Shown here in pieces: positions 18,031 to 57,956 of a stretch of 64,000 nt of DNA (position 1 is its first letter; every line of letters begins with the position of its first letter). The stretch is from NCBI GenBank assembly GCA_964187785.1, contig OZ076409.1, positions 39,372,001 to 39,436,000 on the forward strand, given 5' to 3'. The notes beneath the pieces are model-generated. The model had not been told where the DNA came from and did no database searches. It worked only from the letters and a program-made list of their open reading frames with translations. Source of the stretch: Amphiscolops sp. MND2022 (Eukaryota). Both the position numbers and the translations under genes were made by a program.

Positions 18031-18240
18031 GGACTCAACAGTTTGTGGACGATGCAGGTTCTCTGCATGGCAAGAAGCAAGACCTCATGGTTGCCCAATC
18101 AGCAAGAGATGACAGTGCCACTGGACCGTTGCAACATCACCAGTTTGAGACCCCAGTGGATTGCACTCATGATGTGGCGATGTATTCAATGCCAGCCTCT
18201 CCGCATGACAGGGACGTCATGCAAAAAGCCTGGGGAGTGA

Positions 18241-19012: not shown

Positions 19013-19027
19013 TGAGACCTCATTTTT

Positions 19028-25323: not shown

Positions 25324-26086
25324 TGTAACGGCGAGCTCTGGTAAACCGATTTTGCAACTTTGACATGTTCAGAAATTTTGTCAAAAATTCTAATCCGATG
25401 TGTGACGTGGCACTGAGCATGTGATTGCTCTTTTCGCTGGTTCCACGAAATTGGCAGGTACTTCGACAACAAAGAGCAAGAACGAGCAAAAACACGGGCG
25501 CGCCGCCATGACAGAAGCCAGAAACGGCAAGAACATCCGAAAATAGACTCTTTTTGAGGTGCTAACACCGGTTTTATCGATTTTCAGCATTATGCTACCC
25601 TATGTAGCGGAAACCGTAAAAATGAGTCTTTTCGCCTAAAGATCCTTGTTTGGTGCTTGGAGCCCCTGCGCCCCAGCTTTTTAGCTGTGTGGTTTGCCAT
25701 ATTCGTGCCTGTTTTCATGTATTTTCAGTGATTTTGGCTGTATTCAGTAGCGCTAGCGCTAGTTTAGATCTTATTCCCCAATTTTAGATCTTATTCACAT
25801 GTCACGCTGGAACTGGAAATTTACCTTATTCTTGGCATTGTTTTTATATGCTAGTTAAGCGGTGGTCTTTAGAGAGTCAGAAAGATGCCCGTTACTATTA
25901 GCAATCAAAGACTGGGACCGGTTGGACAGTATTCGTCGAAGCACCCGCGGCCCCGGGACGTATTTCACCCCTGGAGGCAAAATGGATCTGTGGCGATGGG
26001 CGCCTGTCCCGAGCGATTCACCCATTCCTGCAGGTTCCTCCACCTCTGTTAACGCGTTAAGCGACCGATAACTGCTTGCCGTTACA
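25324..26086 (+). repeat. LTR (right copy)
   Basis: TG...CA termini, immediately preceded by the PPT; matches 18241-19012. Confidence 0.92.
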
Positions 26087-26413
26087 TTCTATTATCGAAA
26101 CCTAGTTACGGGAAAAGACTGGTTTTACCTCAATCGCCTGGGGTTGGCAAATGGTAGCGTTCATAAAGGAGAGTTTGTTTTAAAGCTCCTTAATCTTTTA
26201 GATGTAGGGACTGCTCGTAATGAAACCACACATTAGTTTTTATTCGGTGCATTTTCCTTTGAAGGGAAAATGCCGGCTCTTACAGTGACCATTTTTTTCT
26301 CCAGACCACATACCTCACACTAAAAGGTCCACTTTTTACAGAAACTACCAAAACTACTGAGGCCAAGTCCGGTCAGTGGAAACTACTGCAAAAGTTCCCC
26401 ATTTCATTTATTT

Positions 26414-30749: not shown

Positions 30750-33700
30750 TCAACGTGAGAGTTCCGGAGGTGATAGTAACTTGAGTCTACGGGAATGGCC
30801 CTCAGTGAAATCTTTAGTGACCAATTCCTTATTTTCAGAAGCAATGTCTGGTAGAGTAGCTATCGACCAACAGCGAAAGGAGGAGCAAAACGCCATGGCT
30901 CTTAATTCAGACAATTCACCGGTTTCGGAGGAACACCTCCGCAATGGGCAATGGATCCAGGATACCAGGGGTGGGTTGAAAACTTCACTTCAAACGGGAG
31001 GTTTCTGTCTGGAATCCAATAACACGGCCGTCAATGCAACTATCTCAACGAGAAGGGTGCTCGAGGGCACCCGACGAAGGTATCAGCTCTGGGAGCAAAG
31101 ATACCGATGCCATCCTTGAGAGCATGACGTACGTGGGTGGCATGAACTGTGCCAAATATCGTCTGGAGGCTGGTCGTACGAAGGCCTTTGGGACGCATTA
31201 AAAGGTGCGCGCTCCGACATTGCGTATGCCGGACGAACTGGACCGTGATATTGCACAGTGAAGGTGCGACAGCGCCACCTCTTCACGACGATCATCGACG
31301 TTTCATGCCGTGGAGGACGCAGTGGCCGCCAGAACCGCAATGTTACAAGCGGAGGCTTAGGCACATCGAGCTTTGGCACGCTCGGCGAATACCCGTGCCG
31401 AATGCAATGAGCAGCATAAGGTGATGACCGCAGAGCTTGAAGCCATGCAAAGCTCTGTAAAGGAGAGCCTGAGGGCTACCAACCAGCAGCACACTCTGCA
31501 AAAGTGCAATCTGCAAAAGTGGATGCTTTGGGATATTAGTTGGAAGAAATGAAAGATTGATTCCTCCAACGCAAAACTCGCATGGAAGTGCAGATGGCTG
31601 CGCTCAGTACAAAGATGCACTCACTGAGCAGTGCAACACATGGCAGCGACCAACTCGAAGCAGATAAGCCGACCACATCCAGCATAAAGGTGGTGCCTGC
31701 GCGCACCCCTGACCCGGCATTGATATTGAAGGCAAGCAATAAAACGGTAACCAAAGCACCCAAGCCTCCCGAGGCAACCAAGACGCCCACTAAGGTGCAG
31801 GTGTGTGCGTCAATTTCCCTGAGTACTGTTCAGCTACTGCCCACACTGTCACTCACTCGAACTGAAGACCGAGGAGTAGATCCTATGACCAACACCTCTG
31901 CGATCATAGACCTAACTGACACAAATGCCACAGCTGCATCCCACACCAGCAGTGTAGAAGACGACACTTACGCTACCGCTAGGGTAAGGACCACTGGAAC
32001 TGACTCGTTGTTCCTGACTGCTAGCGAGGGGGTGCTTGCGGGCAACACTAGTGCCAGTAGCACTCGTAAAAAGGAACACCTGAATGGAGATCTATCCACG
32101 CAAGCTAAGAAAAGTAGCCGGGATAATTCCCCTGTAGCCAGTGATGAATAGAAAGTAGTTTCCCCGGAACAGCTGCGTATCACAGCTGCATTATCCAAAG
32201 CTATGTCGAAGGAACTGGCTCCATTGTTAGCTGGCCGCAAACCCTCCCAACCCCGACCTAGTGTTTACAGAAGATCCAAAAAAGGCTCCATTGATGGCTG
32301 GATCCTAGTCATGCGCCGTTATCTACAACGCACGCAAACCAAAGCGACTCCAGATGATAAGGCTTGGGTCATCATCAGTCACGTGGAAGGCGAAGCTCGC
32401 AACTATATCATCAACAAGGCTGAGTCCGAACGGGACAAGCCTGAAAAAGTATTGGAATTGTTGGCCAGTCGATTCGGAACTGGAGGCAATCGGATGCAAG
32501 TGCGTCAAGCCTTTGCCATTCGACAAAAATCCGAAAAGGAAGACTGGATGCAGTAATTAGACGCTCTAGAAGGACTGCGCAGTCAGGGATTCCATTATGA
32601 GCCTATCACCACTAAGCGTTACGAAATACCGCAGCGCTTCATCGAGAGTGTCCTTGACGCTGCTTTGCGAAGGGAACTGTCCATCATTTACGCACCCGAA
32701 ACCACCGTCACTGCCCCACCCACTGTGGAATCTTTGAGGTTCACCACCAGGCAGTTGGAACGCAACCGACCCAAGTCTTCACAACCATATGATTCCCGGT
32801 ACGCTATGAGGTCGAGGCCTCATCCCTTCGCACCGTTACTCCCAAACAAGATTGTATTGCCGCGAGGAGTTTTGCCCCCACCTCCTCCAAGCAATGCACC
32901 AGTTAACCCGGCAGCTGCGCCACCAACTGCACGCTTGCCGCTCGTAAGCGGCGTCTGTTTCGCCGTGGGCAGACGGGTCACTTTGCCCGAGATTGTCCTA
33001 CCCGAGATCAGGCTTGCCAATGCGCCATAGTGCTAGAGCCAAAAGCCGTGAAAACCACTGCTGAGGACGTTCTAGAGTGCATCGCAGAGAACTGCTCCGG
33101 AGTCCGCTTTTGCGCCAATTGCGGCGTGGTAGATCACATCGCCTAACAATGTGTGGAAGCTCTTGTGGTGACTTCGCTTACAGTCGATGGGCGGAAGTCG
33201 AGGTGGCTGATGCAGCTGCCCACACTGTGCCACTAGAGGTTGATTGAGTGTTGGTGCTTCACCCCGCGGAACCTCCAGACTTCTACACAACCCTAACTAT
33301 AACGTGTGGTGCCAAGCAAGTGCAAACGTGCTTGGAACCAATTACCTTTGACCCCCAAGGGCGTACGCTCACATCTATTCATTTGATGTTGGCTGCAGAA
33401 CAGCTTTGTCGCCCGAGATTAACTGTGGCCAAAATCTGGGCTCAACTATCCATCCTGTACAAGCGAGTGGAACTCCCTCGCCCAAAAGAATGGTAAGTTC
33501 CCGGAGATTCGGACACTTTGACCACGAATTCTCCTGTGCTTATTTGCGCCACAAAAGACGGCGTGGTTGTGAAGTTTGAATCCTGCGTCGTATTTGACGT
33601 GTTCCCTCCCGGCAAACGCCTGGGATCCCAAGAGCTTAAATGCTACAACGTCAGTTACCAGGAACACACCGGCGAAGATCGAATAGACGAGCGTGGGTCG

Positions 33701-34130
33701 CTCGTCGTGTCCTTCATAGTGCGGCACCAATTCCAGGGACAGGCCACGTCTTTATCAGCGTGATGAACCTCACGAGCAACCCACAACGTATCCGTGGTAA
33801 CACCCTCTTGGGAACCGTGATATCCGTATACCTGGTATACAAAGTTGTGCCCCAACATGTGGATGGTCCAAAACCAAAAACTGAAGTCGATAAAGACCAT
33901 ATTGATTTTGTTACTTAATTTTATACGAAAACTAATCTCAGTACCAACTCGCAATTAACTGTTTCCTAGGAATTTGAGTTTTTTTCGTCAACAGATCCTT
34001 CCGAGGAAGGCATTTCAGACCGTGAAAAACGGAAACGCACAGATCCCGAGCTGATCGCTCCTATACCGGGACCAGAGTCACAGCTACAGGAGCTAAAGGA
34101 CCTGTGGAGCTCTGCAGCGAGCACCTCTCT
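30750..34130 (+). pseudogene. Decayed gag / protease-region coding sequence
   Basis: SIDGWILVMRRYLQ...HVEGEARNYI...LASRFG capsid-like block, CCHC remnants at ~32955-33150, LGSQELKCYNV and RIDERGSLVV; many stops and frameshifts. Confidence 0.78.
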
Positions 34131-34659
34131 AGAGAACACCTCGTTCCTAACACCTCGAGCGGTGTCGACAAAAGAAGTTCCAGGTCCAAAGGCGAAAAGA
34201 GACATGAAAAAGATCTTTATTGCTGAATTGCCATTCTCACGTTGAGTCATGTGCATTCTGTCTACTGTCTTTCCTGTAGCGGAGCTTGCGCCCTCCCAGC
34301 AAAAGAAATTTTAAACAAAAAACTGGAAAATCTGAATTGTAAAAATTGGAGAAAAAATTTTTAGCTGGCACTAGCCGCAAAAAACGTTTTAACCTCCAAA
34401 TGTGTTTCAAAATGGCAAAACCCACCAAAAAAATCCCAGCTCTCGAGCTGGTGCTAGAACGGTCAAAATTTTTTTGTAAAAATATGAAGTTTTGAGGTAG
34501 TATTTCATAGGATCCCAGACGGCACTATTCCTTCAACAGCTGTCAGACAAAGATTCGTCCTTGTTTCAAGACGTATTCACAGGTTGGGAGACAACCCTGT
34601 TCCTATACGAGGTCCTGCAGTGCTTGCGGCGGAGGACAAGCCAGAAGCCCGGGGAGTGG

Positions 34660-35360
34660 TGTAACGGCAATCTGTGATCACCGAAAAATTTTGAAAAACT
34701 CGTTCGAAACTGACGTGGCACTCGAGCATAATTTTGGTAAAGTACCTATCAGCAGAAATCATAAAGAGGCAGACAGAAAAGCGCCCCGGGAAGAGAGAGC
34801 GAGAAAAAAAAGCGTGACAAGGACGAAAAAAGTCAAAAACAGCGAATTGGCTGTATCCACGGTGTTTGTCTGGTGAAAATATGGTTTTGAATGACTGACC
34901 CGCAAATCAGCGTGACAGCTTGAAGATCGCAGTGCCCGTGCCCGGGGGTTGTGCCCAGCTCGAGCGCTGGTGCCATGCCTCCCGAAAGCCCACTAGTTTC
35001 GCCGAACTGGACTTAATTGTCGTAATTGATGTATTTGTTTGATTAGTTATTAGCTCGAGGGCTACTCCTACATTGTGCATTTACCCAGATTCCCGATGGT
35101 AAAAGTCACTACCTTGTTGTTTTTATGAGGTATCTACACGGTGGTTGTGAGAGGAAAGCACAATTCCTTTGATTCTTAGCAGTTACAGACTGGTATCAGG
35201 CCAGAGAGCATCTCTAGAGACGGTTCCCCCTCCTCGGGACCGGCTAGCCTTAGGAGGACAAAGTGAGCTGATATCATGGTAGTTTGTCCCGGACCAAAGC
35301 CATGGTCCCAGTTCCTCCACTCCAATGTCACGATACAAACGCTCAGCGCTTGCCGTTACA
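34660..35360 (+). repeat. 3' LTR
   Basis: TGTAACGG...CCGTTACA after the PPT; homologous to solo LTR 16862-17579. Confidence 0.88.
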
Positions 35361-36119
35361 TTTGTTTGAGATAAAAACGTAGTTTTCGTTATCCTCTTAG
35401 CTGGATGTTGCGATTTTTTGCTTTCGAAGACAGTTTTGTCCAATTGGTGTGAAATGTTCGATGATTGTTCTTAATCTGGAGTACCTGAAATTTGACACAT
35501 TGTCTTTTGTGTTCTTCCGAGGTAATATATCTTTCCGTAGTTGGATTCGGTCCAAGCCTTTCATTATCCGCTTCCCTTTTTGCTCCACGTATTTCAGACT
35601 TAACGTCGTTCCGTAATTTCTCATATATTGCTCTATTAGTTTCATTTGGAAATTCAATCAGGTTCAAAGAAATTTGGGAAATGATTGAATTCTATCTTCT
35701 TAAAGTTGATCGTCATTTATTGGACTGAGTTTGGGCTTCGGCAAGTTTTTAAAAATGACTGCTTTTTTACCCTTAAAGTTGTTCAAATATTTGTATTCGA
35801 GGGTGTTTTATCAAAAAAAAAGCAACTGTTTGTCGGGTGCCAGTAAAATTTTTATGGTCACTGTGTAGTGATCACTAAACTCTGTCAGCAGTGTTTTGGT
35901 ATTCTAGTAGTTTTTTATCATATGATCAAGACCTCGTAGATGTAACTCTCGTAGCCAAATGGTTTTTCTACCTTTCTCTGTTTTCCTGATTTCTGCCTGA
36001 ATGAATAAATATCACACGGATAACGTTATCTATAAAAATGTGTTCTTCAAACAGACATTTTTGTTAGTTCCTAATGACAACTCTGTAGTTGACGCCTAAC
36101 TCTGTAGGGAGTTTCGGAT
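35361..36119 (-). pseudogene. Degenerate LINE middle fragment (endonuclease end and linker)
   Basis: Remnants SDHYTV and YEKLRNDVKSEIRGAK; colinear with the RT fragment at 27500-28430. Confidence 0.6.
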
Positions 36120-36838
36120 TGTAACGTCCGGCTAGCGGCGCACATCTAGGAAGAGGGAAAATGCCTAGGGTGCTTAAACAGGAGACCGTTGTCTTACTAC
36201 ATCCCTAGACACTAGTTTTTCTTCCCAAAATGGTCTCCTAGGGGGACTTTTCTATCGTCTAAGGAGGCTTCTCTAGTTAGAGCCCCGAAGCGACGCGCCG
36301 GCACTCTCAAAGTCCGGACACGCCCCACAAGCCTGTAGAAACGTATCCTAGGTTCCTAATGCCTTCCTACGAGTTCCTACATGCCTCCGAGGTCAAAACA
36401 GTGATTAGCTGGAAAACATCTTATTTTGCAAATGAGATATAAAAAGACCTAGAAGGTCAAACATCTTTCAAATACCAAAGGGGAAATATGGGGATTACAA
36501 AGAAAAGCGGGGATAAACCCCAGTTACTTTACAGTTTTTAAGCCATCGTTAGAAATACGTCTCTGGTAATCTTCATCGGATGTTGCTGACTTCCACAGGA
36601 GATGGCACAACCCTCCGATAGTCGCTGTTTTGATATTTCTCGATCTTCTTGCATTCTTTCATCATTCTCTGCATTTTTTCTAGCACGTGCTCCATTTCTT
36701 GCTCGCTCTCCGCGTGTTCTCTCTTTTCTTTCACGCCTTTTGTACCTGCTAGGTCGGCCATCTTTTTTCTTCTATTTTGACATCGCACATTTCGAATTTT
36801 TCATCGAAATTTTGGTCATGCCGGTGGCAGACGTTACA
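36120..36838 (-). repeat. 3' LTR
   Basis: TGTAACGTC...GACGTTACA, with adjacent PPT ggcccggggagga on the minus strand. Confidence 0.95.
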
Positions 36839-37388: not shown

Positions 37389-40300
37389 TCACTCATCGTT
37401 TTGGCTTTGTTGCGAGTCCGAAACGGATGAAGTCACTGTGGACTGCTGATTTGTTGACGATTCCGCCACCAAGGGAGGATATTGCATTGACTCGTCGATG
37501 GTGAGCAAATTATTCAACTCTGATCCAATATCGGCAGCGTCCATTTGCGATATTCCCGTCTCGGGTTCATCTTGGGTAGGGGTCGCGCTGTCGGACAGAA
37601 TGAAGTTATCGTCCATCATGGGTTCATCATGGGTTTCCGCGGCGATGGATGAATTCTCCTGGTCTTCTTCCATTCGAGTTTCATTTCCTTCCGAGGATAA
37701 CCTACGGGGTATTGTTTGCTGTCAGCTGCCGGGGGCAGCCGCATTTGTTGCATTATTTTCTTCGGTGATATTTCCCTGTGGGAAGTCAGGCAGCTTGTCG
37801 GCCAATTCTGGGTGGCCGTATTGTATGAATAAATTTTTGAAGGTCTGGATTCCACGTGCATAGTCTTCGACAACAGAATGCCCTCGTTCTTTTTGTTTGC
37901 TGTGTAGATTCAGGAACATTTCCAGCGCGGCGCGCGGATTGCTTGGGACATCTGTACTGATTGGCAAGGTTTTTCTATTTGGTTCTTTTGCCACTGAGGG
38001 CGTCTTGGCCTTTATGCGCTGGGATGTCTGGTGAACTGCTAAGTCCACCAAGTCTGGTTTCGACCAGCATGTTGTTGCTTGTAATATGTTGGATGGGTGT
38101 GCGCGGGGATTGGTTCGATTACAATACATCCTTGAAGCGTCACATACGTAAGGATACCGCAACCCGGTGGGGCTTTCGCCTCGCCTTCTGCCGCCTAATC
38201 TCTGGATCACAGTGGCTAAGATCCTTAAGATCACTTCTGTGCTCCAGTCTGCAAGGGAATGCGCTGCTCCTGTCGCTGGGTTCAGAGGGATATGTAGCCA
38301 TGCAATTGGGTGGAATTCCATTGGCATCGGGAGGGCGCATCGCGCACGTGCTCTTATAATAGACGTGAAGTTGTGTTCCACCTGCTTTTTGTCTTTGATG
38401 ATCGTGTAGGCCATGGGCGGTCGCAGGGAACTGAAGTTGGCTACTACTCTGCGGTAGGTGGGCTCCTGTTGGATTCCATCTGTTGTTACAAAGTGTAGTA
38501 TGGAGTAGGTGGGAGTATTCGCTGCCATACGTAAGACTTGGGTCGGGTATCTTAGTGCCATGACCGCGCCAAAGATTGGCCAGACTATGGGAGCTATTAG
38601 AGGTATTAAGTCCTCTGTTTCCTTGAAAAGAGCTAGGAGCTCTTCATGGAATTTCGGATCGTGAGTCTTCTCATCGAGGGTGGATTCGTCCCTTCTTTCA
38701 AACCAGAGGTTATCTATCAGGTGTTTTCGCTCACTCTCGTTTGGGTCAAATACTTTGCGAACACCGTTTTCGTCTATGGATCTGATGGACATTTGCATCC
38801 CATAGTCGTATGCAGTGGCTTCGTCAACAAGAAGTTGTGAGTTGCCTTCATATCCCGTATATCCTTGGACAGCCTTGGATATGTCGGCCAAGAATGCTGG
38901 GTACGATGCCTCACAGGGACGCCATGTGGTCACGTTGATCCCTAAGTTTGGGGCAACGATGTAGAAGTGCAAATCTCTTGCATAGGATGCTTCCATCACC
39001 AAAACAAGAATTGTTGCAACGCTCTTGGGAGATAGATGTACCCAGGAGGTGACACGAAGACAGTTCCTGTGTTTGGTTTCTTATTCCTCATCATTGTGGC
39101 AATGCGGGACATTGTTTCTATGTACGCGGTTACTTCGTCGGTGACAAATCCTTCAGTGAATCGAGTGCTCAGCGCATCGAAATGTCGCAGTGATCCTCGC
39201 AGTGCAAGGTGGTCGATCACGTTTGAGTATATCAGGATTGGTGGGAGAGGTATTGTTTCTGCCGCCGCTGGCGTGAACATTTTATCGGTTACCTCTGCCA
39301 TTTCATTGAGTGTGGTGCAGGGCATGTTCATTAGTCTGACATCCATCAGAGTATTGTTGGCAGTATACAATGATTTGATGGTTGAGTCGACAAAGAGAGC
39401 AATTCTGGTTTTTTGCAATAGGTCTTTCCCCATTGGTAGCAGGGTGATGGGGTTCCTGGCGTAATTTGTTGATTGCAAATGATTCTCTCCGAGTCTGCCG
39501 GGTCTCTGGCGAGCGAGTCGCTCGTTGGTTGCTTGGAGCGGTTGTAAGTACGTGGAGTTGCTGTTCTGCAATTCTCTCGTGAGACGCTCGAACCATGGTG
39601 GGACTCCTCCATCATTGGCGAATATTGGTGGCTTAACTGGTCGGTTGTAAACTACTCCAATGTTGGCCTTCTCTATAGTTCGCTGAGTGGTTTGGTCCCC
39701 TCTGCTGTTAGCGCTCGCAAACTTCTGTCTTGGGGGATTTTCTTCGTCAGGCATATTTGGTATTTCGCGTTGAAGACGCAGTGCGTCTCTCGCTGTAATA
39801 TCCAACTGTTTCATTTCTGCCGCAGTCAGCAGCTCTCTTGCGACTTTTTGCCTCCTGGCCTCTGGTTGGCTAGGGGAAGGGGCCGGAGTTCCCCTGTTTG
39901 ACCTTGAGCTAGTTTGTCCGTCTTGTTCCCTAGCTCTCTTGGTTGCGTTCAATTTGTCGCGAAGGTCCACTGGGGCATTGTTGGTCTTTCTTTCCTCTCG
40001 CTGTTCTTCTTTTTGCCGCTCATCCAGTTTTGGATCTTTTTGAAATCCTACTAGTCTGCTGGGTTCGTTTTGAGCAGGTTGGGTGTTGGAGGTGGAGGGA
40101 ATTAGTTCTTCGTATGAGTCTTGGAACGTGACTTTTCTCGTCTGGAGTGTTTCGTTGGCCTGTTCTTGTGTTGTTACTTGGTTGCATTCGATGGGGTTTG
40201 TTTGCATCGCTTGCACCCCTCCCCCCTGAAAGGTGGAAGGAAGCATGAAGCCAGAAGTAGATGGAGTAAGCGGTCTGATACCCACAGATGCCAGAGGCAT

Positions 40301-40831
40301 AGGTGGTGTAAGGATTGGAGGTGGCATCAAGGGTAGGGTGCAGCGGAAAGCTGGAGCCTCGGTGGGCTGAAGCTGAGGTATGGCTTGGGATGGGGTTGGC
40401 TGCGGTGTTTGGAACATGGGTTGAATCGTTGGTGGAGAGATTCTGAACGATCGTTCTTGATCCATTGAAGGCCTTTCAGGTTCTCCATAAAGCATGTGAG
40501 AGCGAGGGTCAATGAGATTGTGAGTTAGGTCATACCCATGCCAAATGCCATCGCGGAAGGTAGCGGAACGCTCAAGCGGTCCGATGCTACTCGTGATAGT
40601 TAAGAGGACTTCTGGATGCGCAGCTTGCGCTTGCATCTGTGCGACAATCTTGGCGAAGCCAGCGATCATGGTGGGGTTGGCCCCGTCTTGTAAAGCTTGT
40701 TGGACTAAGGCTAGTTGGTCGACGCGACCATTAACCTCGCCCACTGGTGGAAGAGTGTTAGGAGGTACTCGAGGTTGGGGATTCTGTTGGCTGTTGGGTG
40801 CAGGCATGCGGTTGCGTGATGAAGGGTCCAT
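37389..40831 (-). pseudogene. Accessory ORF (~1150 codons, two frameshifts): Pro/Gln-rich N-terminus, SGNH-hydrolase-like central domain, acidic tail
   Basis: ORFs 38996..40975, 37722..39002 and 37389..37673 abut or overlap. Motifs RIALFVDS, MPCTT, ILIYSNVIDHL and VFVSPP occur at SGNH-like spacing. Confidence 0.65.
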
Positions 40832-41244
40832 TGATAGCACTGATAGGGGATAGGGTGATATTGATGAAACTGAGTGATGGTGCACTTTAGGAAAGCTGCG
40901 CAAGGGCGAAGCAACAGGATTAAACTGAAAAGCAAGTTGCATATGAACAGAGAGAAGTTTCATAGGATATATCAAAAGGGTTAAGAAGGGAATACAAGTG
41001 ATTACAACTTAAAAATACAGTGTAAGCGTTAAAAAGACTTGTAGCTGAATAGAGTACCGTCATTAGAAGTTCTACGGACTAATCCGCGCGTATTGAGGAA
41101 GTCAACAGAGAAAATGGGATGGTTTTTCAGAAAATTAAGGAGGGTGGGCCTTTGGCCCTGCAGTAATGAGGATTCAACGAGCGGTGATGTCAATAGAAGA
41201 AATTGATGCGATTGAGACGTAGACTCTATCATGGAGTATTATTG

Positions 41245-42334
41245 CTAGATCCGATCCGAAAAAATGGTCCGGGAGGGTGGTGTATCAGATTGGTAAGAGG
41301 TTGATCGATCGTTCGGGATCATAGATGGGCATGTGAATGTGGGAAATTCCGTGTTGGTGGAGCAGGTGTCGGAGGTGGTTGAGGCATGTATGTAGGGTTT
41401 CATGCAGGAGGGGGTGTTTGCTGGAGGCTCTGGTGCATAGGAGGACAATTTGATTGTTCCAGGGTGCCATGTGGGAATGTTGTGAGCGAATGGCCATTCC
41501 AACTGAAGGTTTTAAACGGAAGATGGCTTCTTGTCCATATTCGCGAATGACATAGCGAATAGTCGCCGATTGGGATTGGAGGTCTGCGGGACAACACAAC
41601 ACTAGTGTGCCAGAGGCTTGTAGAATGTCCGTGTCGGAGTAAGTAATCCAGGGCACGTGGTTTGGACGAATCTTCGGTTGTGTTATGAGCCATTTCCCAG
41701 TTTCCACTGCATGATTTTTCAGGGGGTTCGAGATCAAGTGTCCAAAAATTGCTTTGCGATCTTCCCATATTGTGCGATGCAGGGGGCGGTCACCCATGTG
41801 TATGCATGACCAGCTGTGCATTATGGAAAGCGCTTCTAAGGGAGAGATGGGAGTCTCAGGTGTGTATGTCAATCGGTCGAGAATACAGATCTTCGTTTGT
41901 CTGCAAAATATAATGGCTATCAGTTGCAGCCAGTGTTGGCTCAAGAATTTGCCGCGGTAAATGTCGGCGAGATGAAAACACAGGGTGTCGTTTGTCTTGA
42001 CGAGGGTGCGTAGATTCTCTAGACACAATAATAATGTAGTTGGTGAGACCAACGAAGAGTCATCGGAGGAAGTGACTAGGAGCCACCATCCAGCGGATGG
42101 TTGATATACGTCACCTGGAGGGGAAGTGATGTGATATTTTCTCCATAGTTGGTTGGCGGTAATGCAGCGAATCATTTGGGGGTTGTTGCAGGTATCGTCT
42201 AGCTCACCGAACGAGAATGAGGGTGGTAAAGGGGGAATGATTGCTGCCAATGTGACCTCGAGTCCACCCTTTTCGTGGGTTGTCCATTCTTTGAAGCGAT
42301 ATGTTGGACAATGGGAAGGAGAGAATGTGTGCAT
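41245..42334 (-). CDS. Tandem TARG1/OARD1-like macrodomain region, probably a C-terminal extension of Pol
   Basis: ITYSDTDIL..LVLCCPADL..IREYG..PSVG..IVLLCTR..ETLHTCLNHLR..GISHIHMP, preceded by a more diverged copy (PGDV..WLLVT..CLENLR..WLQLIAIIF). In frame with ORF 42335..42727 across a single TAA. Confidence 0.68.
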
Positions 42335-45300
42335 TTATTTCAGAGTGGACTCCAGAGGTGGTATGGATTCGGACTCGATACTTGTAAAGGTCTTCTCGAT
42401 TGTTAGGATGATGTGTCGGATAGTTGGCGGGGATTCGGGTGCTTGTGAATTCGCTCGGATATTCACGACTTCGTGTTGTGGATGGTTTGCTGATTGCGCT
42501 AAGAAAATTTCGCAAGCCGGAATCGCCTCTCCCCGGGCCAGTCGTTGATTCGGGGGTCCCGTAGTGATTAGCTGGATGCAACTACAGTCACGGGAACCAC
42601 AGGTTCCGCATTTATACCTCGGCGCTCTGTTGGCTCGGAGTTGATAGCGTGGCGCTTGTCTGGAGGTATCGTCTGGTTGGTTTGATTGAGTAGTGGTTGA
42701 GCTTTTAGGAATCTGAGGGAGGGTCATGGCTCTGTCAAGCGTCCTGGGTGTGGTCCTGGAGGAAAATCTTGTTCTTGGGCCTTCTCTGGGCTGTGTGGTT
42801 GGTTGCCGGGAAGACGTGGTTGTTCCGCTTGATGACGAGGGTAGTTGGTTTCGGCGACCGGGGGGTCTGCCTCGAGGTCGACCTCTCCTGCTGGTAGTTG
42901 TGGGAGGTGGGTTTCGATTCGTGATCTGGTTGTCAGGATCGGCGTTGCATTCTTGTTGTTTGGATCGTTTGTTCGTTGATTGAATAGGGGGAAGTTGCTT
43001 AAGGTGTCTGTGAGCGAGGGATTAGATAATAATGGGGCTGAAATCCCGGAGGGTGATGGTATTAAGCTGTCGGTGAGGGCTGGTGGTAGTATTTCCTCTT
43101 GATCAGAAAATACTGGTTCTAGATCATCGATTTCGAGGGATACTACTTGGGAGGGAGATATTATGGGAGGGGGTCCAGGCTCTTCAGGCTCAGAGTCTGA
43201 TTCGGATGGGTATCCGAATTGGCTGAATCTCCTGCGCGGGATCCCTCGTTCTAAGGCGGTCTGGGTACGTGTCTGGATGGTACGAGGAGGGACTGGTCTC
43301 GTGGGTTCCAGTTCGAACGATGCCTCTGGGAGTTGTTCGGGTAGGAAGGAGTCCCTAGAGACATCGGAGGTAATTTCTTCGTTAGTGTCCTCCACGTATG
43401 GATCGGCGATGATGGCTATATTTGGATCCGGTCTGAAAGGTTGGTGAGTGGTCCAATCCCAAGGGGCTGGTACGTGTTTCTTTAGTCTCTCGTAGTGGAC
43501 CTTTTGACCTGTGTCGAGCACGTAGAGGCGTCCATCTTGTAGTACGTCGGTTATTTTGTGGGGTCCACGCCATGCGCGAATAAGCTTACGAGTGCCACCT
43601 TTGGGGATTATGTGACAGAATACCCAGACAGCGTCGCCAATGGCGTGTGCTTTTGCTTTTAGATGGCGGTCGAATTTTAGCTTTGTCGAAGCTGAGCTTG
43701 ATCCTTCGTACCAATTCATGGATTTCTTGTTGCCTGGCCAATAGGTGTTCCACGAATTCTTCTTTGGAATCAAAACCTCGCGCTGCGAATTCTGGGTAAA
43801 TAAATGATAGTGGGATGGATTTCTCTGCGCCATGGTGGAGCATGTAGGGTGAAAATCCTGTTGTTGCGTGTCGGATGGAGTTGTACGCGCCCAGAACTCC
43901 ATCAATGTATTCGTCCCAGTCTTGCATTTTACGTGATGTGTAGACCCTGAGCAGGGTGAGCAAAGTTCGATTCTGCCGTTCCACGAGACCGTTCCCTCTG
44001 GGGTGTGCTGGGGTGGACGTAACTTTGGTAACTTGAGAGGCTTTCATAAGTTCCTGAGCGATCTCAGCGGTGAAATTGGTCGCATTGTCTGATTGCATCC
44101 TGGCCGGAGTGCCGTGCCTGGCAAACCATTTGTTTAGGATAATTTTCGCCGTGGTTTGCGCGCGGTATTCGTCATGGGCGCATGGGACTGCTTCCGCAAA
44201 TTTGGTAAAGTGATCGATTCTTACCAAAAGGCCGGTGTTGCCTGAGTCGGTTTTGCAGAGTTTCAAATGATCGAATTGAACCAGGTCGTTGAAAATGCTA
44301 CTGTTGATATTCTGCAGGGGGTAGCAAGGATTTCCCGCTGGATGTTTTGCTTGTTGACAAGTTAAGCATTGCTTGATGTGATTTACTACGTCCCTTTTGA
44401 TTCCCGGCCAGGTATGCCGTTCTTGTATCCTGGCGAGCACTTTTCCCACGCCTCGATGTCCTGATTCATCGTGCGCTCGGTATAGGATTTCGTGTTGGAA
44501 AAGTTGCGGCATAACTATCATGCAAGGGCGTACGTGCAGAGCACGTTGTTGAGGGACGTAATTGACGCAGAGTATGTCGTCAGGGTTTAAGAAGAGCAGA
44601 TCCTTCTTTTGATGGTAATACCTCTTGGCGAAGTCTTGTTTTTCATCTGGGAACATTGGATCTTCTAGGGGTTCATTCTTCATGAGCTTCTTCAATGACA
44701 AGAGATGTACGTCTCTATTTTGAGCTATGTGTAGGTCTCGTAGGCCATATTTGATTAGATGACGTTCGTGCAATCCTGTTTCGATGGTTCTCAAAATCTC
44801 TGCTTGTTTTTGGCATTCGATGGGCAGTGCCCCCAGTGTTGGATCGGGTTTAGTGGTGTCTATTCGTACCGGAGGCATTCTCGTGGTCATGCTCAAGATT
44901 CGGTTAGGTCGTTCGTCTTCCTCAAGAGTCGGTGTGGTTTCCCATTGTATTTCGGGATTCCAAGGGGTATCTCCTATTGGCTCTTCGGATTGTTTGCTCT
45001 TTCGTCTCTTCTGAAGAATGTATAGTAGCTAAATGAGCTCGAGCTTGTGGAGGAAGTTCTGGATGGTTTGGAATGAGGTGACCGCGTTTGTCAATGTATG
45101 GGACTGTGGGGAGTTCGTCGTAGTCCTTTTGTGACATGAAGTTGAATCCTTCGCTTACTTCTGGTAGCTTTTCGAGGATTTGTTCGCGGTTAATATAGTC
45201 GTTGGTTCGCTTGCTGAGTCCATCGACATTTCGGTGTTGTGTACGCGGTCTGTGGATTGTTTTAAAATGGTATTGGTCTAGGCGTGCGATCCAACGGCCA

Positions 45301-47890
45301 ATCATAGCTTGGTCCATGGAGTAGGTTTTGAGCCATGACAGGGCTTGGTTGTCCACGCGAAGCGTAAACTCTCTACCTGCAAGATATGAGTGGAATTTCT
45401 CCACGAAGTAAAACACTGCATACATTTCCAACTTGGGGGCACCATAATTGAGTTGGGTTTTGGTCAGTGATTTGCTGCCGTATACTATTGGTCTCAGGAT
45501 GGTTTTGCCATTGTATTCTTGTTCTTGATGTAGAATACCTGCGATCGCCACCTTGCTGACGTCTGTATCTAGCACGAATCGTCCTTGTTCGTTCGGTGCA
45601 GCTACGGTGGTGGCGTCGGATAGGGCTCGTTTCACTGAATCGAAGGCTTCTTGGTGTCTTCTTTCCCAACTGAAGTGTTGATTCTTCTTTAGCAATTCCT
45701 GCATGGGTTGTACTTTAGCGGCGTGGAATGGGACGAAATCGCGATAGTAGTTGGCGAATCCTAGGAAGCTTTGGAGTTCTTCTTTGTTCCTTGGTGGTAA
45801 CCACTCTCGGATTTTAGTCACTGCTTCTGGGTCGGGATTGATTCCGTCGGCTGATACTATTCGTCCCAGATATTTGGTTTCCGTGCGCATGAAGTCGCAC
45901 TTTTCTGCTCGCACTTTGAAGCCTGCTTCTCTGAGACATTCGAATACCTCTTTAATTCTCATTATGTGGTCTTCGATTGTTTCAGTTGCAATTACTATGT
46001 CGTCAATGTAAGCCATGACGACACTCCCGTGTCTTTAATGGATTTTTTGTAGTGCTCTGGTGATGGATCGTTGGAAGGTGGCGGATGCATTGCATTGCCC
46101 GAAGGGCTTGCGTCGCCATTCAAAGAATCCCAACTCACAGACAAATGCAGTTTTTCTTCTGTCGCGCTTCTTCAGTGGTATTTGCCAAAAGGCCCACGCT
46201 AGGTCGATGCTTGTGAAGATTTATGCGTTACCTATCCTGGGCAGACTTTCGACTATTCTGGGAAGGGAAAAGGCGTCTTTTACTGTCACGTCGTTTAACG
46301 GTCGGAAATCGCAACAGAAGCGAAGTTCGCCTGTCTTTTTCTTTACCATTACTAATCCACTAGCCCAAGGCGAGTAGGAAGGTTGGATTAAGCCTAAGGC
46401 CAAGAGGTTCCTTACTTCTTGATTGGTTTTGGCAGCCTTGTCAGGAGACATTCGTCTTGCTCCCTCCCGGTGGGAGATAGCTTCTGGTTCTAATTCGATA
46501 CGATGCTTTGCTATTGCACATTTTCCTATGTCGGCTTTATGTTTCATGAAGAGATCGTCGTACTCGTTTAAGACTTCTGCTAATTTATCTCTCGCTCCCT
46601 CCCCCCAGAACGAAAGGACAGAGGATAGGTCAGGGCCTGGTATTGGTTTCAATAGGGTGGGGTCAGTTTGCGCACGTTTTTCGCTTTCCGACATTTCCTC
46701 TTCTGACAACTCAGTAGACGATAAAAAGTTTTGTGCGAAAGAACTGAATTCACTGCTTGTGTCGTCAAGATCAACAATATTAATATTATTAACTTGTTCG
46801 ATTAAGGGCATGTAGGTTCCATCGGCTTGGTCAACCGGAATCGGTGTAAACTTAAAAACGGTAGGTTCTGCCTTGCCAAGGACAGTTTTGCTTGGGATTT
46901 GCAACTTTTCGGTAGCGGTTTTGTTTCTTATGGCTAGGTATACCGTGCCGTCGTCTCCCACTGAAGTTAGGGTGTCTTCTGAAACAAAGGAATTTCGGTT
47001 GTACATCCCGCTGGGATGTATCATCATATTACGGAAACGGTATTTGTTGGAGTCCTGTGTGATGACCTGCGCTCTAACCAACTTGCGCTCGAAAGGTCCT
47101 AGTACAACTTTGTCGGTGGATATTACCAAAGAAGGTTCATGGTCACTAACCTCATGGACGGGTTTGAAATTGCGTGGAGTTTTTGGGTCCCGGATGGTGA
47201 CCCTCATGGCGGTTACGTCCACGAGGACATTATAGGTGCGCAAGAAGTTGCGTCCCAACAGGAAGTCTTCAGCTCCTAGGTGGTCAGCGATGACAATAAA
47301 GTTGGTCTTCAGTGTGTGGCCACCCGAATGGAAGCTCACATTTTCAGCCATGCCGATAGTGGTTATCGTTTTGCCGTTGGCTGCGTATAGTTGAACGTCA
47401 TACGGCATGAGGCTCATCGAATGGGCGGAGGCAATCTTCTGGTATGCGGCGAGGGAGAGGATAGAGACACCTGAACCCGTGTCGATCATACCATATAAGG
47501 GAATGGGTTCCTGGAGGTTGTTGCCGAAGGCAACTACAAGCGATGCTCGTTCGTCTATGCGCGCTTCCCCTTGAGTGTCTTGCACTCCAATGTTATAACA
47601 CCTCAACTCCTGGCGACCCAGGTATAATCCCTGTGGGAAATTACCTTCTACGACTACGATGGCGTCAAATTTCATGTCGACCCCGTCTACGTTGATGGCT
47701 ACCGGTACTGGAGAAATTGTTTTCACTTTTTGGATTGGTGCTAATTTGGTTTCGTCCTCCCGGGTGAAGTGCGGTAGCGGTCGAGCCGCAACTGTATATT
47801 TGGTATTTCTGCACAGCTCTTCTTTTAATTGCGTCAATGTTAACTCGGGACGCGATTTTTGTTCCGCCGAGAGGAGTAAGTGTATAGAGA
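42335..47890 (-). pseudogene. Gypsy Pol (protease, RT, RNase H, integrase, long C-tail), frameshifted
   Basis: MIDTGS; SPWAS..DFRPLN; YIDD; LDTDVSK; VDNQAL; DGLSKR; integrase HDESGH..CLTC, QFDHL, QSDNA, GLVERQNR; WRGPH; RRGRPRGRPP. Confidence 0.93.
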
Positions 47891-47892
47891 TG

Positions 47893-50800
47893 AGCCACCT
47901 TGCATTTGGAGGAGATGAGGGTTGAAGATCTAACGTCATCTTTGATTGACACCAGATAAACACAAGCACCGTAGGCTTTTTCGGAAGCATCACAGAAGAC
48001 TTGCAAAGAGGCTTCATCGTACAAGTGGGTTGGTAGCACCTTCCTGGGTATCTTGAGTTGTGAGAGCGAGCCCATGCCATCTTTCCAGTTTGTGTATGCT
48101 CGTGACACATCGTCTGGGACTGTATCGTTCCACTCAAGATCCAGCTTCCAACACGACTGAATGATGATCTTGGCTACTATGAGAACTGGAGTTATGAGGC
48201 CAAATGGATCAAAATGTTTTGAAACATCACTGAGTAAAGTTCGTTTGGTAATGATTGAAACATACTCACTACTACATGCGTACACAAAGTGATCCTCTAG
48301 AGGATGCCACGTCAGTCCCAGTGTTTTGATTTGATGGGTTTTATCGTTGATTTCATAGGCCTTACAAGCTTCTTGAAGGTCTTCGGGAAGACGAGTGACC
48401 AGTTGGGGTTCGTTGCTGCTCCACTTGCGTAGTGGGAGACAGTTCTTAATGAGGGTTTCAATCAGATTGTCTTGAAGCACGCATGCTTCCTCTAGTGTAT
48501 CAGCACCACTAAGTAGATCATCAACCCAGAAGTCATTGAGAATCACATTCACTGTGTTGGGGTTGGATCCGTTTGTTTTACCACTCTCTTGAAGTGCTCG
48601 GGTTGAATGGTAGGAGGAACTGGCAACACCGTACGTCACACGGGTCATGCGCAGTTCTCGGATTTCGTCCGTCAAGAAATCACGCCACAGAATTCGGTGG
48701 ACGTCACGATCTGATTCGTCTAAGGCCACTTGTCGATACATCTTTGCCACATCTGCCGACAAGGCATATTGGTGTAGGCGAAAGCGAATGAGGATGTCGA
48801 GCACATCGTCTTGTAAGCGAGGTCCAAGCAGTAAGCAATCGTTGAGAGAGTAGCCATTTGGGGACTTGCTGCTAGCATCGAACACGACACGAAGCTTTGT
48901 TGTTGTACTATCTTTGAACACACAGTGATGGGGTAAGTAGTAACACAACCCTGAAGTGTGACGAGCTTCTTCCAAGTGACCCATGTCTAGAAATTCCTTG
49001 ATGAAGTCACGATACTGCTGCTTCACATCACCGTGATCCTTGAGCTTTCGTTCCAAAGCGAACAATCTCTGCTTGGCTGTTTGAAAGTTGGTCGAGGGAC
49101 GTGCCTCAGACTTGAAAGGAAGATGAACTGTGATGCGGCCGTCATCTGGCACATAGGTCGTCGTATCGTAATGTTCCACACATTGACGATTTTCTTTGGA
49201 CATCGGCTTCACTCGAGGAATCTCTTCAACTTCCCAGAACTGAGTAAGATCCAGTTCCACTGCAACTTGGAATGATTGACATTGGTAGGCACGCACTTGG
49301 GACAACACTCCAGTGACCACCCAGCCGAAGATAGACTTGCGATAGTGAAGCCCATGAGCCTTCCTCCTTTCGTCCAGAAAGAGATCCTCGTACACATCCG
49401 CGCCCAACAATAATTGAACGGGGCCAGGTTGATGGAAGTTTTCGTCAGCTAATGCTACACTTTTCATTGATTTCAATTGCTTCAAATTAATGGATTGAGA
49501 GGGTATATTACCTGCAATTGAGTTCAGCACTAGTGCTGTTACCGGCAATTTTTGAGGACCAATCACGAGATTGACTGACTCCTTTGCTGCTTGTTGCCGT
49601 CCACCAATCCCTGAGATCTTCACATCTACTGTTGACCGTGCAAGGTTGAGGTTTGATGCACCTTCTGCTGTGATGAAGGATGTTTGAGAACCTGAGTCCA
49701 GCAAGGCTCGAAACATCATCGTCTTTCCCGCTGCATCATCTATGCCAACCATTGCTGTTAACAGAAGCACAGATGGACCACTGAATGTGGCACCACTCGT
49801 CACACCACCTTGCTGCTCGACTGGACGATCAAAGTGCAGTGATGTATGATGCCTCCCGTTGCAAGTGCGGCAGCTGAATTTCGATGGACAATCAGCCACG
49901 AAATGCCGCCCCAGACAATTCATGCACAGTTTGAGCTTCCTCACCACTGCCTTTCTCTCACGTGTGCCCAACTGCTTGTAGCGATCACACTGAGAAATTG
50001 AGTGAGACCCATTGCATTCTTTCATCTGACAGTTTGCTGAGTGCTCAACAGTTGAGGGGTATGCTTCTTGAAGCACCTTCTTGGGCGTCGTCTTGGGGAC
50101 GGAAGCCTCATGCTGGTCGCCGCTTGATTCCAATGCACGGCTTCGTCTATCCATGAATGTAGTTAACTCCTTGAATGTTAACACATCTGTGCCAGGATGA
50201 GCCAATTCAAATTGCTTCCTCGACTCAGCATCAAGTTTTTCAAGCAGCCAGTACACAAGTATTGCATCCCATTGATCGACAGGAAGCCCTAAGGCTTCTA
50301 GTGCTTGCACATGTTCATTGGTCGACTCCAGTAACTTGCGCAGCTCGACACTTGACTCCTTCTTGATGGCTGGTAGGGCATGAATTGCCGCCAAGTGCGC
50401 CTTCACGATTGATCGCTTGTTGTTGTAGCGCTCCTCTAACTTACGCTTGGTGATGTCGTAATTGGTAATTGGTAATGTCACGTTTGCTGTCAACCAAGGT
50501 TGTAAATTGATCCCAGAAGGAGACCCACTGCGTATATTCGCCACTGAATGAGGGAAGAGTCAGCTTGGGGAGCTTTGTAGTCAGGCTGCCACTTGATGGT
50601 GTTGCTGCAGCGCTTGGGCCTGGAGGCTGCAACTCCTTGATTCTGCCCTGACACCACTTCACAGCCCTTTCTGCTGCCAGGAACACATCTGCAGCTTCAT
50701 CCACATCAGCGTCTAGCTCATCGTCTTCTTCAATGAGTTGTTGAATCTGTGAATCCAACTCTGTCAGCATCTTTCGACGGTCGATCAGAAACTCCAATGT

Positions 50801-50956
50801 GGCTTGCACATCCTCGAGTGCTCCACCGGCTTGCCGGATTGCTGTAGCCCGTCTTGTGAGGACACCACGATGAGCCCCTCTTGATCGCTTCAATTGAGCC
50901 AACTTCTGCACACCACCAGAGCCGTCTGAACCTCCTGGAGCATCTGCTGTTGACAT
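47893..50956 (-). pseudogene. BEL/Pao Gag-Pol, truncated before integrase
   Basis: ORFs 50441..50959 and 47665..50544, with a frameshifting deletion near 50470. Confidence 0.9.
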
Positions 50957-50972
50957 CACGTCGAGGTCACCA
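50955..50972 (-). promoter_or_regulatory. PBS, tRNA-Trp-like
   Basis: TGGTGACCTCGACGTGAT on the minus strand, 1 nt after the putative LTR end. Confidence 0.8.
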
Positions 50973-50973
50973 A

Positions 50974-51515
50974 TGCTTTAGGGGTAGCTCTCAAGCTAAT
51001 ACGGAGAAACTCAAAGATAGAGTTCGAACTAGATGGATTGAGGGAACTCAAAGATAGAGTTCAAGCTAAAGGTTGAGGTCTTGTTCTCAAACAAGAAGAC
51101 TAAGATTGAAAACGTTTATTGACGATTTCTTATCACGGTAACGGTATGAATATAAATGAGTGAGTTTAGAGACAATAGTGGGGAACTGGTTGTTAGCAGG
51201 TTGTTAACCAGCAAATTAGGCAATTAAAGCCAAAAGGGCAACAAAAAGGTCTCAACTGGTTGTTTATATGTATGTAAAAACAACGTTTACAATAGTGAGC
51301 AATGGGTGGTAAATTGTACATCAAATGAGCAATGTAATTGCTGTCAAGCAAAGTGATTAATCAAAATTAAAGGTGAAAGAATAAATAGGCAAAGAAGCTA
51401 AAAAGCACTGTCGCAGATTCGAACTCGCGCAGACCGGTTCGAAGGCAAAGACTGATCCACTGTGCTAAGTGGATTAATAATTACTGCGCGATCATTGTGA
51501 TGTCATGCGCCAACA
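50974..51515 (-). repeat. Putative BEL/Pao 5' LTR
   Basis: TGTTGG...AAGCA bounded, adjacent to the PBS. Single copy, so the outer end is inferred. Confidence 0.6.
51400..51472 (-). ncRNA. tRNA-like Pol III unit (A box, B box, T-run) within the BEL LTR
   Basis: TAGCACAGTGG ... GAGTTCGAATC ... TTTTT at tRNA spacing; the cloverleaf stems are imperfect. Confidence 0.55.
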
Positions 51516-52992: not shown

Positions 52993-53713
52993 TGTAACGT
53001 CCGGCTAGCGGCGCACATCTAGGAAGAGGGAAAATGCCTAGGGGGTTCTTAAACAGGAGAACGTTGTCTTACTACATCCCTAGACACTAGTTTTTCTTCC
53101 CAAAATGGTCTCCTAGGGGGACTTTTCTATCGTCTAAGGAGGCTTCTCTAGTTAGAGCCCCGAAGCGACGCGCCGGCACTCTCAAAGTCCGGACACGCCC
53201 CACAAGCCTGTAAAAACGTATCCTAGGTTCCTAATGCGTTCCTACGAGTTCCTACATGCCTCCGAGGTCAAAACAGTGATTAGCTGGAAAACATCTTATT
53301 TTGCAAATGAGATATAAAAGGACCTAGAAGGTCAAACATCTTTCAAATACCAAAGGGGAAATATGGGGATTACAAAGAAAAACGGGGATAAACCCCAGTT
53401 ACTTTACAGTTTTCAAGCCATCGTTCGAAATACGTCTCTGGCAATCTTCATCGGATGTTGCTGACTTCCACAGGAGATGGCACAACACTCCGATAGTCGC
53501 TGTTTTGATATTTCTCGATCTTCTTGCATTCTTTCATCATTCTCTGCATTTTTTCTAGCACGTGCTCCATTTCTTGCTCGCTCTCCGCGTGTTCTCTCTT
53601 TTCTTTCACGCCTTTTGTACCTGCTAGGTCGGCCATCTTTTTTCTTCTATTTTGACATCGCACATTTCGAACTTTTCACCGAAATTTTGGTCATGCCGGT
53701 GGCAGACGTTACA
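52993..53713 (-). repeat. 5' LTR
   Basis: Direct repeat of 36120-36838. Confidence 0.95.
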
Positions 53714-54090
53714 GATATGTGTAACTATTTTCTAGCAAATCCGGCTGATAGAGTTTATATAGTCTATTAAAGATTACTCGATATTTCCGAGCGCAAGGCT
53801 AAGGGTCGTGGGTACTGCAATTGCCTTATTGCAATTGCAATTTGGTCTGAAAAGTAGCTTAAATCTTTCATTAGGGACTTTTTGGTACAATGAGTATTTA
53901 TGGAGTTTAAGATTAGGCAACGTAGCTACACTTGGACACCATCGCACAAGGAGAGCGTTCGTTCCTGGTCTGTTTTTAGCGGGCGTTTTCGAGGAAAATG
54001 CACGACTCTTACAGTGGCTACTTTTTATCGTCAGCTCAATGCGATCTGTTCACTTTTTGTGCACTGTGCACTTTTACCATAAGTAATTAG
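53714..54090 (-). pseudogene. Possible 5' (endonuclease) part of the interrupted LINE
   Basis: Weak remnants resembling GGV..Y and YRP motifs; position is colinear with 35361-36119. Confidence 0.35.
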
Positions 54091-57119: not shown

Positions 57120-57596
57120 CTGAAAAGATTACACTTTTATGTAATACAAACAAAGTCGTGAATGTTTACTGTAAAACCTGATACGATCAGCCAATTGTCA
57201 ACTTATACAGAGGCATTATGTTTCTCACAAATGGCAACAATCAGAGACCAATTGACTCCAGCACTATTTTTCTCAGCTTGTTCATGTTTCTTTATTATTT
57301 TTCTCAGTAGTTTATGGCTGGTGTAAATAGTCAGCTAGTGAATACATTAGGGACAACAGACCAAAACCTTTTTACTAAAGTGATCAATGTCTTACTCAAC
57401 GCAGACGAACAATAAAATGGTACAACAAGAGCATAATGCACAAACATGTTTTATTTTACAAAATTCTCCACGTCATGTTCAATAAAATGTAGCTGGTGCT
57501 GTCTAACAACCAATAATCAAGCAACATCTAGTTTTTCCCAGCAGATGCTAACAGCATCAACGTGATGCATGAAGTTATCAGAAGATCTTCATAGAC

Positions 57597-57956
57597 ATTT
57601 TTGCAAAGTCAGAGTTAATGACTCCAATGATTTGGCAAACCTGAGCTATTCCGTGTTGTTGCTTCGAAGCAACAACACGGAATAGCTCAGGTTTGCCAAA
57701 TCATTGGAGTCATTAACTCTGACTTTGCAAAAATTACTTCGAAGCAACAACACGGAATAGCTCAGGTTTGCCAAATCATTGGAGTCATTAACTCTGACTT
57801 TGCAAAAATTACTTCGAAGCAACAACACGGAATAGCTCAGGTTTGCCAAATCATTGGAGTCATTAACTCTGACTTTGCAAAAATTACTTCGAAGCAACAA
57901 CACGGAATAGCTCAGGTTTGCCAAATCATTGGAGTCATTAACTCTGACTTTGCAAA
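57597..57956. repeat. Perfect 138-bp palindrome plus four tandem 75-bp units
   Basis: Palindrome 57597-57734 centred on gcttc|gaagc; units start at 57662, 57737, 57812 and 57887. Confidence 0.95.

Follow-up and report, generated by a model that had tools for sequence, protein, structure and literature searches.

A tandem macrodomain-like module with a rewritten TARG1 pocket closes the Gag-Pol of a Ty3/Gypsy-like retroelement in Amphiscolops

What could a retrotransposon use a pair of domains for that resemble ADP-ribose-binding enzymes and stand directly behind its integrase? The question arises from a 64,000-nucleotide stretch of the Amphiscolops sp. MND2022 genome (contig OZ076409.1; hereafter the window), for which an earlier note, made from the sequence alone, had proposed two TARG1-like macrodomains appended to a Gypsy Pol, possibly non-catalytic and serving in counter-defence or as a chromatin or poly(ADP-ribose) (PAR) tether for integration. 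Among RNA viruses, macrodomains are well known as a means of counter-defence.

A 349-aa open reading frame (ORF) was present at 41285-42334 on the minus strand, with an in-frame stop at either end (42335-42337 and 41285-41287). The TARG1-type motifs quoted for its second block could be read back from this frame (ITYSDTDIL, LCCPAD, LCTR, LHTCLNHL and GISHIHMP, with the G....G element only loosely recognizable), as could the two reported changes, LITK to LCTR and the IGCGLD loop to YDPERS. Its position behind the integrase tail was described correctly; its status as a separate ORF was not, the reading frame being continuous with the integrase tail (42335-43021). What the stops delimit is a C-terminal fragment of a Ty3/Gypsy-like Gag-Pol, in which the module makes up the final ~385 aa of unbroken copies, and coding similarity of domain 2 runs beyond the stop at 41285-41287, to about 41216. 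In the window, the fragment belongs to a minus-strand LTR element of 17.6 kb with TG..CA ends, whose LTRs are 98.3% identical over 719 columns (Table 1). This copy is damaged: Gag is absent, with other sequence in its place, and Pol carries stops and frameshifts. The fragment occupying the place of gag (47976-50977, minus strand) is presumably a BEL/Pao-like gag-pol, judging from its motifs. The element's neighbour at 31540-34906 (plus strand) is a degraded gag-protease from a sister subfamily within this clade, and its unbroken relatives (3,128 aa) bear the macro pair too.

Table 1. Features of the window element and of related loci (positions refer to the window unless a locus is named)
Feature	Position	Strand	Remarks
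3-bp target-site duplication	36117..36119 + 53714-53716	.	exact pair flanking the element
3' LTR	36120..36838	-	TG...CA termini
ORF2 remnants	37389..41008	-	1403-1439 aa in unbroken copies; no Pfam match
ORF2 SGNH-like region	window 37389-41008; L035:8413-9156; L128:120-872	- (window)	by-eye pattern
Macro domain 2 (residues 225-373)	41216..41662	-	predicted TARG1/DarG-class fold, pocket rewritten; stop 41285-41287 inside
Domain 2, G121-C122-G123-L124 to DPER	41309-41320	-	profile alignment; D125 to S
Domain 2, K84 to R codon	41429-41431	-	profile alignment
Macro domain 1 core (residues 52-152)	41879..42181	-	predicted eroded macro-like fold, two-helix tail to about 41732
Domain 1 DxxR loop	41954-41965	-	G43 loop/helix shortened; S/A at K84 position
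Cys4 motif CxxC-x3-CxC, upstream of macro pair	42578..42628	-	pattern; putative zinc binding
AT-hook-like RGRP motifs, low-complexity integrase tail	42854..42889	-	GRP core pattern
Integrase (H2C2 zinc finger, rve core, GPH-type C-terminal motif) and linker start	42961..45010	-	frameshift near 43683
Protease, reverse transcriptase, RNase H	45018..47975	-	broken in window copy
5' LTR	52993..53713	-	TG...CA termini
Three lineages with intact TARG1-like domains	L070-L086; G000:C12:44816438-44822212, C8:61679038-61684419, C1:2913921-2917997		K84/G123/D125 kept
ORFs of the after-IN lineage	L143:2719-5067 and 913-2058; L144:3-938		Pfam: no match over cut-off

Protein searches of the 1.07-Gb genome (1,929 contigs) returned 4,347 candidates, of which 116 were scored at 70-100% identity; in 24 of these, open frames of 3,237-3,326 aa surrounded the module. 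Two full-length copies that were read encode a single Gag-PR-RT-RH-IN polyprotein with the module at its end, followed by a 1,403-aa ORF2, and the best PDB match of Pol was Ty3 Gag-Pol (E 7e-107), so that the proposed fusion to a Gypsy Pol is borne out by unbroken copies. Further subfamilies carry the module in frames of 3,049-3,220 aa, down to ~40% identity, and each of the eight long natural frames from the clade included in alignments or scans contained it. The clade combines PR-RT-RH-IN order, YxDD, a CX2CX4HX4C knuckle (4 of 6 frames), a GPF/Y-like motif (WRGPH, 6 of 6) and TG..CA LTRs. Database relatives numbered 136 in one search and 217 in another, and those in the listed rows and in ten clusters looked up were all ENA proteins. 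One relative, P0171, had no own-genome match above about 36%, which suggests that genomes beyond this one carry the module. No RNA record containing the module was listed, a result that does not bear on expression. ORF2 contains SGNH-hydrolase-like blocks recognizable by eye (VDS, N-x-I-D-H, SPPG), with Arg at the would-be catalytic His; searches of Pfam, NCBIfam, PHROGs and PDB did not confirm this pattern, and PPR matches of ORF2 were rejected as summed repeat noise. In three copies with unbroken Pol, ORF2 was shortened or absent. GDSL/SGNH ORFs are documented in LTR elements (PMC5408684, in part).

Selection on the module was estimated as dN/dS (Nei-Gojobori) between natural copies of different subfamilies. 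The one unsaturated pair gave 0.045 for domain 1 and 0.10 for domain 2, compared with 0.012 for RT, 0.010 for IN and 0.19 for the linker. In the other, mostly saturated subfamily pairs (pS 0.71-0.94) the domains still hold 37-76% amino-acid identity; between the more distant subfamilies, RT and IN retain 82-98% and 68-96%, respectively. Both domains are under purifying selection and, judging from these substitution patterns, the module is functional but less constrained than the Pol enzymes. Conservation as coding sequence in other genomic copies, on which the original proposal depended, was thus found both in the long natural frames and in dN/dS.

Structure prediction was run with AlphaFold2 on a 136-row alignment headed by a stop-free natural copy that shares 97% identity with the one in the window. 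The resulting model contained two domains (mean pLDDT 78) at a pTM of 0.46, so the relative orientation of the two is not fixed; prediction from the single sequence was uninformative (pLDDT 35.6). Domain 2 (residues 225-371 in the model, pLDDT 76-94) matched TARG1 with Z 17.4 and an rmsd of 2.1 Å over 137 aligned residues (Foldseek E 3.9e-7), as had been anticipated for a macro fold, and matched DarG with Z 14.8. Profile comparison with hhalign aligned domain 2 to a canonical TARG1-like set at P 95.6% (E 1e-8), with a score of 55 against at most 18 for 20 column shuffles, and all five matches of the family profile at E≤10 among PDB sequences were TARG1, although weak (E 0.36-0.5). A TARG1-class macrodomain fold is strongly predicted for domain 2.

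The leads for domain 1 all point to a macro fold, none being decisive alone. Modelled as part of the pair, this domain (residues 39-154) matched SARS Mac2 in complex with Paip1 (rmsd 2.9 Å, 102 residues aligned) at Z 7.6, a value within the range of common arrangements, and the PepB N-domain at Z 6.4. The domain pair aligned across PARP14 macro 1+2 and across the SARS-unique domain, the latter with Z 7.6-7.7. Against the canonical set, hhalign gave P 66% in one run and P 27% in another, the lower run still scoring 26.8 against at most 20.4 in 20 shuffles. The two domains resembled each other as profiles (P 80%, E 1.3e-5, 71 columns; P 25%, E 8e-4 with smaller alignments) but not by pairwise BLASTP (E 17); the two similar blocks of the earlier note are therefore similar at the profile level only. 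An eroded macro-like fold is moderately predicted for domain 1, and the proposed double macrodomain would consist of a TARG1-like second block preceded by a putative degenerate macro-like one. Pfam, NCBIfam and PHROGs gave no macro match on either domain; a canonical control domain did match DarG. Pfam had nothing on the ORF, and Macro was absent from the families shown (25/30) for the 136 relatives. The profile of each half alone missed TARG1 among PDB sequences, its matches to HDAC4 and a ribose transporter being discarded as chance level, and atlas searches yielded weak Macro leads only (0.76, 0.87).

Pocket residues carry human TARG1 numbers, which exceed PDB chain positions by 6 (agreement was checked on the published G43, I44, K84 and G123), and were equated through profile alignments rather than superposed coordinates, in counted rows that include broken copies. 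The Asp equivalent to D20 serves adenine binding in macrodomains. Domain 2 keeps it (88 of 99 rows; invariant in a 16-row alignment) together with the D37 equivalent (85 of 104). Elsewhere it has A at G43 (89 of 103), R at K84 (84 of 90), D at G121 (67 of 76), E at G123 (64 of 75), R at L124 (65 of 73) and, at D125, S in 45, P in 17 and G in 3 of 73 rows; the distant relative P0177 has Lys at the K84 position. In domain 1 the adenine-binding Asp is not evident, the G43 loop is shortened, K84 corresponds to S/A in 85 of 92 rows, and D and R of its D-x-Y-R loop occur in 92 of 102 and 89 of 101 rows. The glycine diphosphate loop (G121-x-G123) is absent from both domains, D-P-E-R standing in its place in domain 2, and the DxxR loop common to the two suggests that the loop change preceded the duplication. 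Conservation is among the highest at the polar pocket-lining residues D236, D251, S256, R302, D339, E341 and R342, as would fit equally a sealed pocket or a ligand site put to new use.

These substitutions fall on residues with known effects in TARG1. The consulted part of PMC5928194 reports that TARG1-G123E neither binds ADP-ribose nor acts as a hydrolase, that it keeps its RNA binding and that PAR competes poorly on this mutant. TARG1 K84A is inactive (PMC8501950, in part), and K84 works as a dyad with residue 125, which is Asp in the TARG1 chain and Glu125 as written in PMC7050489, an excerpt of which describes the TARG1/DarG class as mechanistically diverse. The suggestion of a possibly non-catalytic module agrees with the replacement of the K84/D125 pair in domain 2, as read from profile alignment. 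Its PAR-tether and ADP-ribose-removal readings lose ground to the Glu at G123: because G123E abolishes ADP-ribose binding, hydrolase and PAR-tether roles appear unlikely for domain 2, and by these alignments for the module. That the module would not be a canonical TARG1 hydrolase can be said with far more confidence than which of the other readings applies.

Between the WRGPH motif of the integrase and the macro pair, a linker of low complexity contains AT-hook-like GRP cores in 6 of 6 natural copies, and a CxxC-x3-CxC pattern follows it in 5 of 6. The RGRP motifs at 42854-42889 are putative AT-hooks. Chromoviruses bear a chromodomain at the C-terminal end of Pol (PMC12440569, in part), and the macro pair sits in the same place; the AT-hook and chromodomain parallels are arguments from position. 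In four copies for which charge was computed, the macro domains were near neutral. Insertion distribution was assessed on the copies located on chromosomes of known length (115 of 150 and 36 of 40 rows), and no regional bias along chromosomes was detected for the 115 copies of one subfamily (KS p 0.19) or the 36 of another (p 0.78). The flanks of 18 copies shared no common repeat (3 short BLAST matches). Three bases outside the duplication, A/T occupied 34 of 36 positions (p 2e-5 against 64% A/T), and 44 of 54 duplicated target bases were A/T; insertion preference is local and mild only.

Typical Gypsy target duplications are 4-6 bp long. The clade departs from this Ty3/Gypsy criterion with a duplication of 3 bp: of 27 copies read at both ends, 25 have an exact pair and two match at two of three bases. 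It is present in all 18 located copies of one subfamily, two of the 20 sampled having been dropped with a 5' end outside the sequence analysed. TG..CA termini were found in all copies read, and a TG..CA clade with 3-bp duplications would escape annotation tools set to 4-6 bp. Troyka elements likewise have 3-bp duplications and a single Gag-Pol, and are characterized in the consulted part of PMC12440569 by CG..CG ends, a CX2CX8-10HX4C knuckle and no GPF/Y motif. Membership in Troyka was rejected: the tandem-module clade consists of 15-19 kb elements with 700-bp LTRs, TG..CA rather than CG..CG ends, a CX2CX4HX4C knuckle and the GPF/Y-like WRGPH.

Intact TARG1-like domains occur in other retroelements of the same genome. 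Of 150 candidates scored in a Pfam Macro search, 24 matched, and the 20 that were retrieved comprised 3 host-gene-like sequences and 17 TARG1-like domains in Pol-type frames or fragments. A profile of the intact Pol domains matched TARG1 with E 4e-42, compared with 0.36 for the tandem-module family. In a canonical set of genome domains and 120 database relatives, partly circular as it was picked by likeness to canonical seeds, K84 was kept in 125 of 130 rows, G121 in 126 of 128, G123 in 124 of 130 and D125 in 126 of 130. Among 30 proteins longer than 700 aa, 21 have the domain in the RNase H-IN interval, 6 have it ahead of RT and 3 behind IN. In a midpoint-rooted RT tree of 25 rows, drawn from elements of this analysis only with no named references, each domain position, and likewise the tandem-module clade, formed its own lineage (support 100/99 for three and 90/94 for one), and the joining of the tandem-module clade with the RH-macro-IN lineage was unsupported (89/79). 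Independent captures and one module moving between lineages both fit the tree and are not distinguished by it. A single genome holds TARG1-class domains in four RT lineages and at as many positions in Pol; they are intact in three lineages, duplicated and rewritten in one. Where an intact macrodomain follows IN, the lineage also has a 783-aa ORF in env position further downstream and, between pol and that ORF, an antisense ORF of 382 aa. Two proteins, P0445 and P0449, combine a TARG1-like macrodomain with DNA ligase III BRCT Pfam domains, P0445 also with a ligase.

Compared with known systems, domain 2 is closest to TARG1/OARD1/C6orf130 and DarG (ALC1-like class), sharing the minimal macro fold (Z 14-17) and the D20/D37 equivalents; unlike these, the module has K84/D125 and the glycine loop replaced, is tandem and Pol-fused, and lies below Pfam detection. 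The intact domains of other Gypsy-type Pols and ENA proteins belong to the same class within Pol, in one lineage also after the integrase, but are single copies with intact residues in other RT lineages, whereas the module is tandem with a rewritten pocket. Like the SARS-unique domain (nsp3 Mac2/Mac3), whose macro folds are not known to bind ADP-ribose, the module would place tandem degenerate macro folds in a viral-type polyprotein; that domain belongs to an RNA virus, the structural match is weak, domain 2 is far closer to TARG1, and the similarity may be convergent. Chromoviruses share a binding-type domain behind the integrase, but theirs is chromo and not macro, and no regional targeting was detected here; next to chromodomains, the module may be a third type of domain appended to an integrase. 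Database annotations of canonical TARG1-like domains probably exist in Gypsy Pol, and an earlier description of such domains there is possible. Fish epsilon-like endogenous retroviruses are LTR retroelements that also captured macrodomains, described as additional ORFs (Basta 2009, cited in PMC4977317, in part). A literature search, with Repbase reports, subscription journals and supplements outside its scope, found no description of macrodomains in Gypsy Pol, and the consulted passages of PMC11673190, PMC13524379, PMC6431247, PMC5408684 and PMC4299795 held nothing on macrodomains.

The reading we favor, tentatively and at somewhat less than even odds, is that the tandem module serves, independently of ADP-ribose, to bind chromatin or nucleic acid from its place on the integrase tail. 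An element would have captured a TARG1-like domain, gained the DxxR loop and afterwards duplicated the domain; the pocket would have lost canonical ADP-ribose binding, as we infer from the loop substitutions, and the pair would now bind via other surfaces or a re-purposed pocket. Together with the AT-hook and Cys4 motifs, it might hold the integrase on host chromatin or nucleic acid. A chromatin tether independent of ADP-ribose is possible and would be non-specific, because insertions are dispersed; the lack of regional insertion bias and of a common flank repeat and the near-neutral domain charge speak against a tether. A canonical TARG1-type hydrolase or PAR reader, protecting cDNA ends or the integrase or docking on PARylated chromatin, could draw on the TARG1 fold and adenine Asp of domain 2, but is highly unlikely with K84, G121, G123 and D125 all replaced, when G123E alone suffices to abolish binding in human TARG1 (PMC5928194, in part). 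That the module is a functionless relic carried by the element is barely credible: the window copy is broken, but retention in 8/8 long natural frames and purifying selection between subfamilies with saturated synonymous sites contradict it.

Other binding roles share some of this evidence. The pair could be a counter-defence decoy that blocks a host PARP or macrodomain reader by protein contact, without ADP-ribose. Three other lineages with intact TARG1-like domains suggest a recurrent need to counter ADP-ribosylation, and divergence is quicker in the macro pair than in RT and IN; yet outpacing the enzymes is normal for accessory domains, and positive selection was not seen at the domain level. 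We rate this as unlikely. We also consider it improbable that domain 2 has a re-wired pocket of new specificity, for a nucleotide, a modified nucleic-acid end or a basic peptide, with Arg replacing the glycine loop. The adenine Asp, the D37 equivalents, R302, D339, E341 and R342 are conserved to ~30%-identity relatives, P0177 has its Lys, and the TARG1/DarG class is mechanistically diverse (PMC7050489, in part); on the other side, two acidic residues take the place of the diphosphate-cradling glycines, the D125 partner is gone, domain 1 is without the adenine Asp and Lys, and the conserved residues could instead form an internal salt-bridge plug. Quite improbable, too, is an RNA-side role like that of the SARS-unique domain, in which the partner of the pair would be either RNA of the element itself or a translation factor, at the stage of packaging, of trafficking or of translating the 3,200-aa polyprotein. 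RNA binding outside the pocket by TARG1, including G123E (PMC5928194, in part), the best match of domain 1 to SARS Mac2-Paip1 and the alignment of the pair with the tandem SUD would favor it, but these Z values are weak, the domains are near neutral in contrast to the basic patches invoked for TARG1 RNA binding, and a place behind an integrase with an AT-hook points more to DNA.

Taken more broadly, host ADP-ribosylation might restrict LTR retrotransposons, four Gypsy-type lineages having captured TARG1, three as an eraser and the fourth, hugely amplified and with 3-bp duplications, as a duplicated pseudo-enzyme turned new integrase tether or PARP decoy; we regard this combined scenario as rather unlikely. 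Whether host ADP-ribosylation acts against retrotransposons becomes testable with small soluble domains, and the module offers a natural G123E-type pseudo-macrodomain under selection.

Outside the element, the window also contains 75-bp tandem units repeated four times at 57584-57956, each near-palindromic, and long inverted repeats about 4 kb apart (13273-13812 and 16787-18033). Direct repeats of ~1 kb at 18035-19013 and 25118-26087, 7.1 kb apart, likely mark another LTR element.
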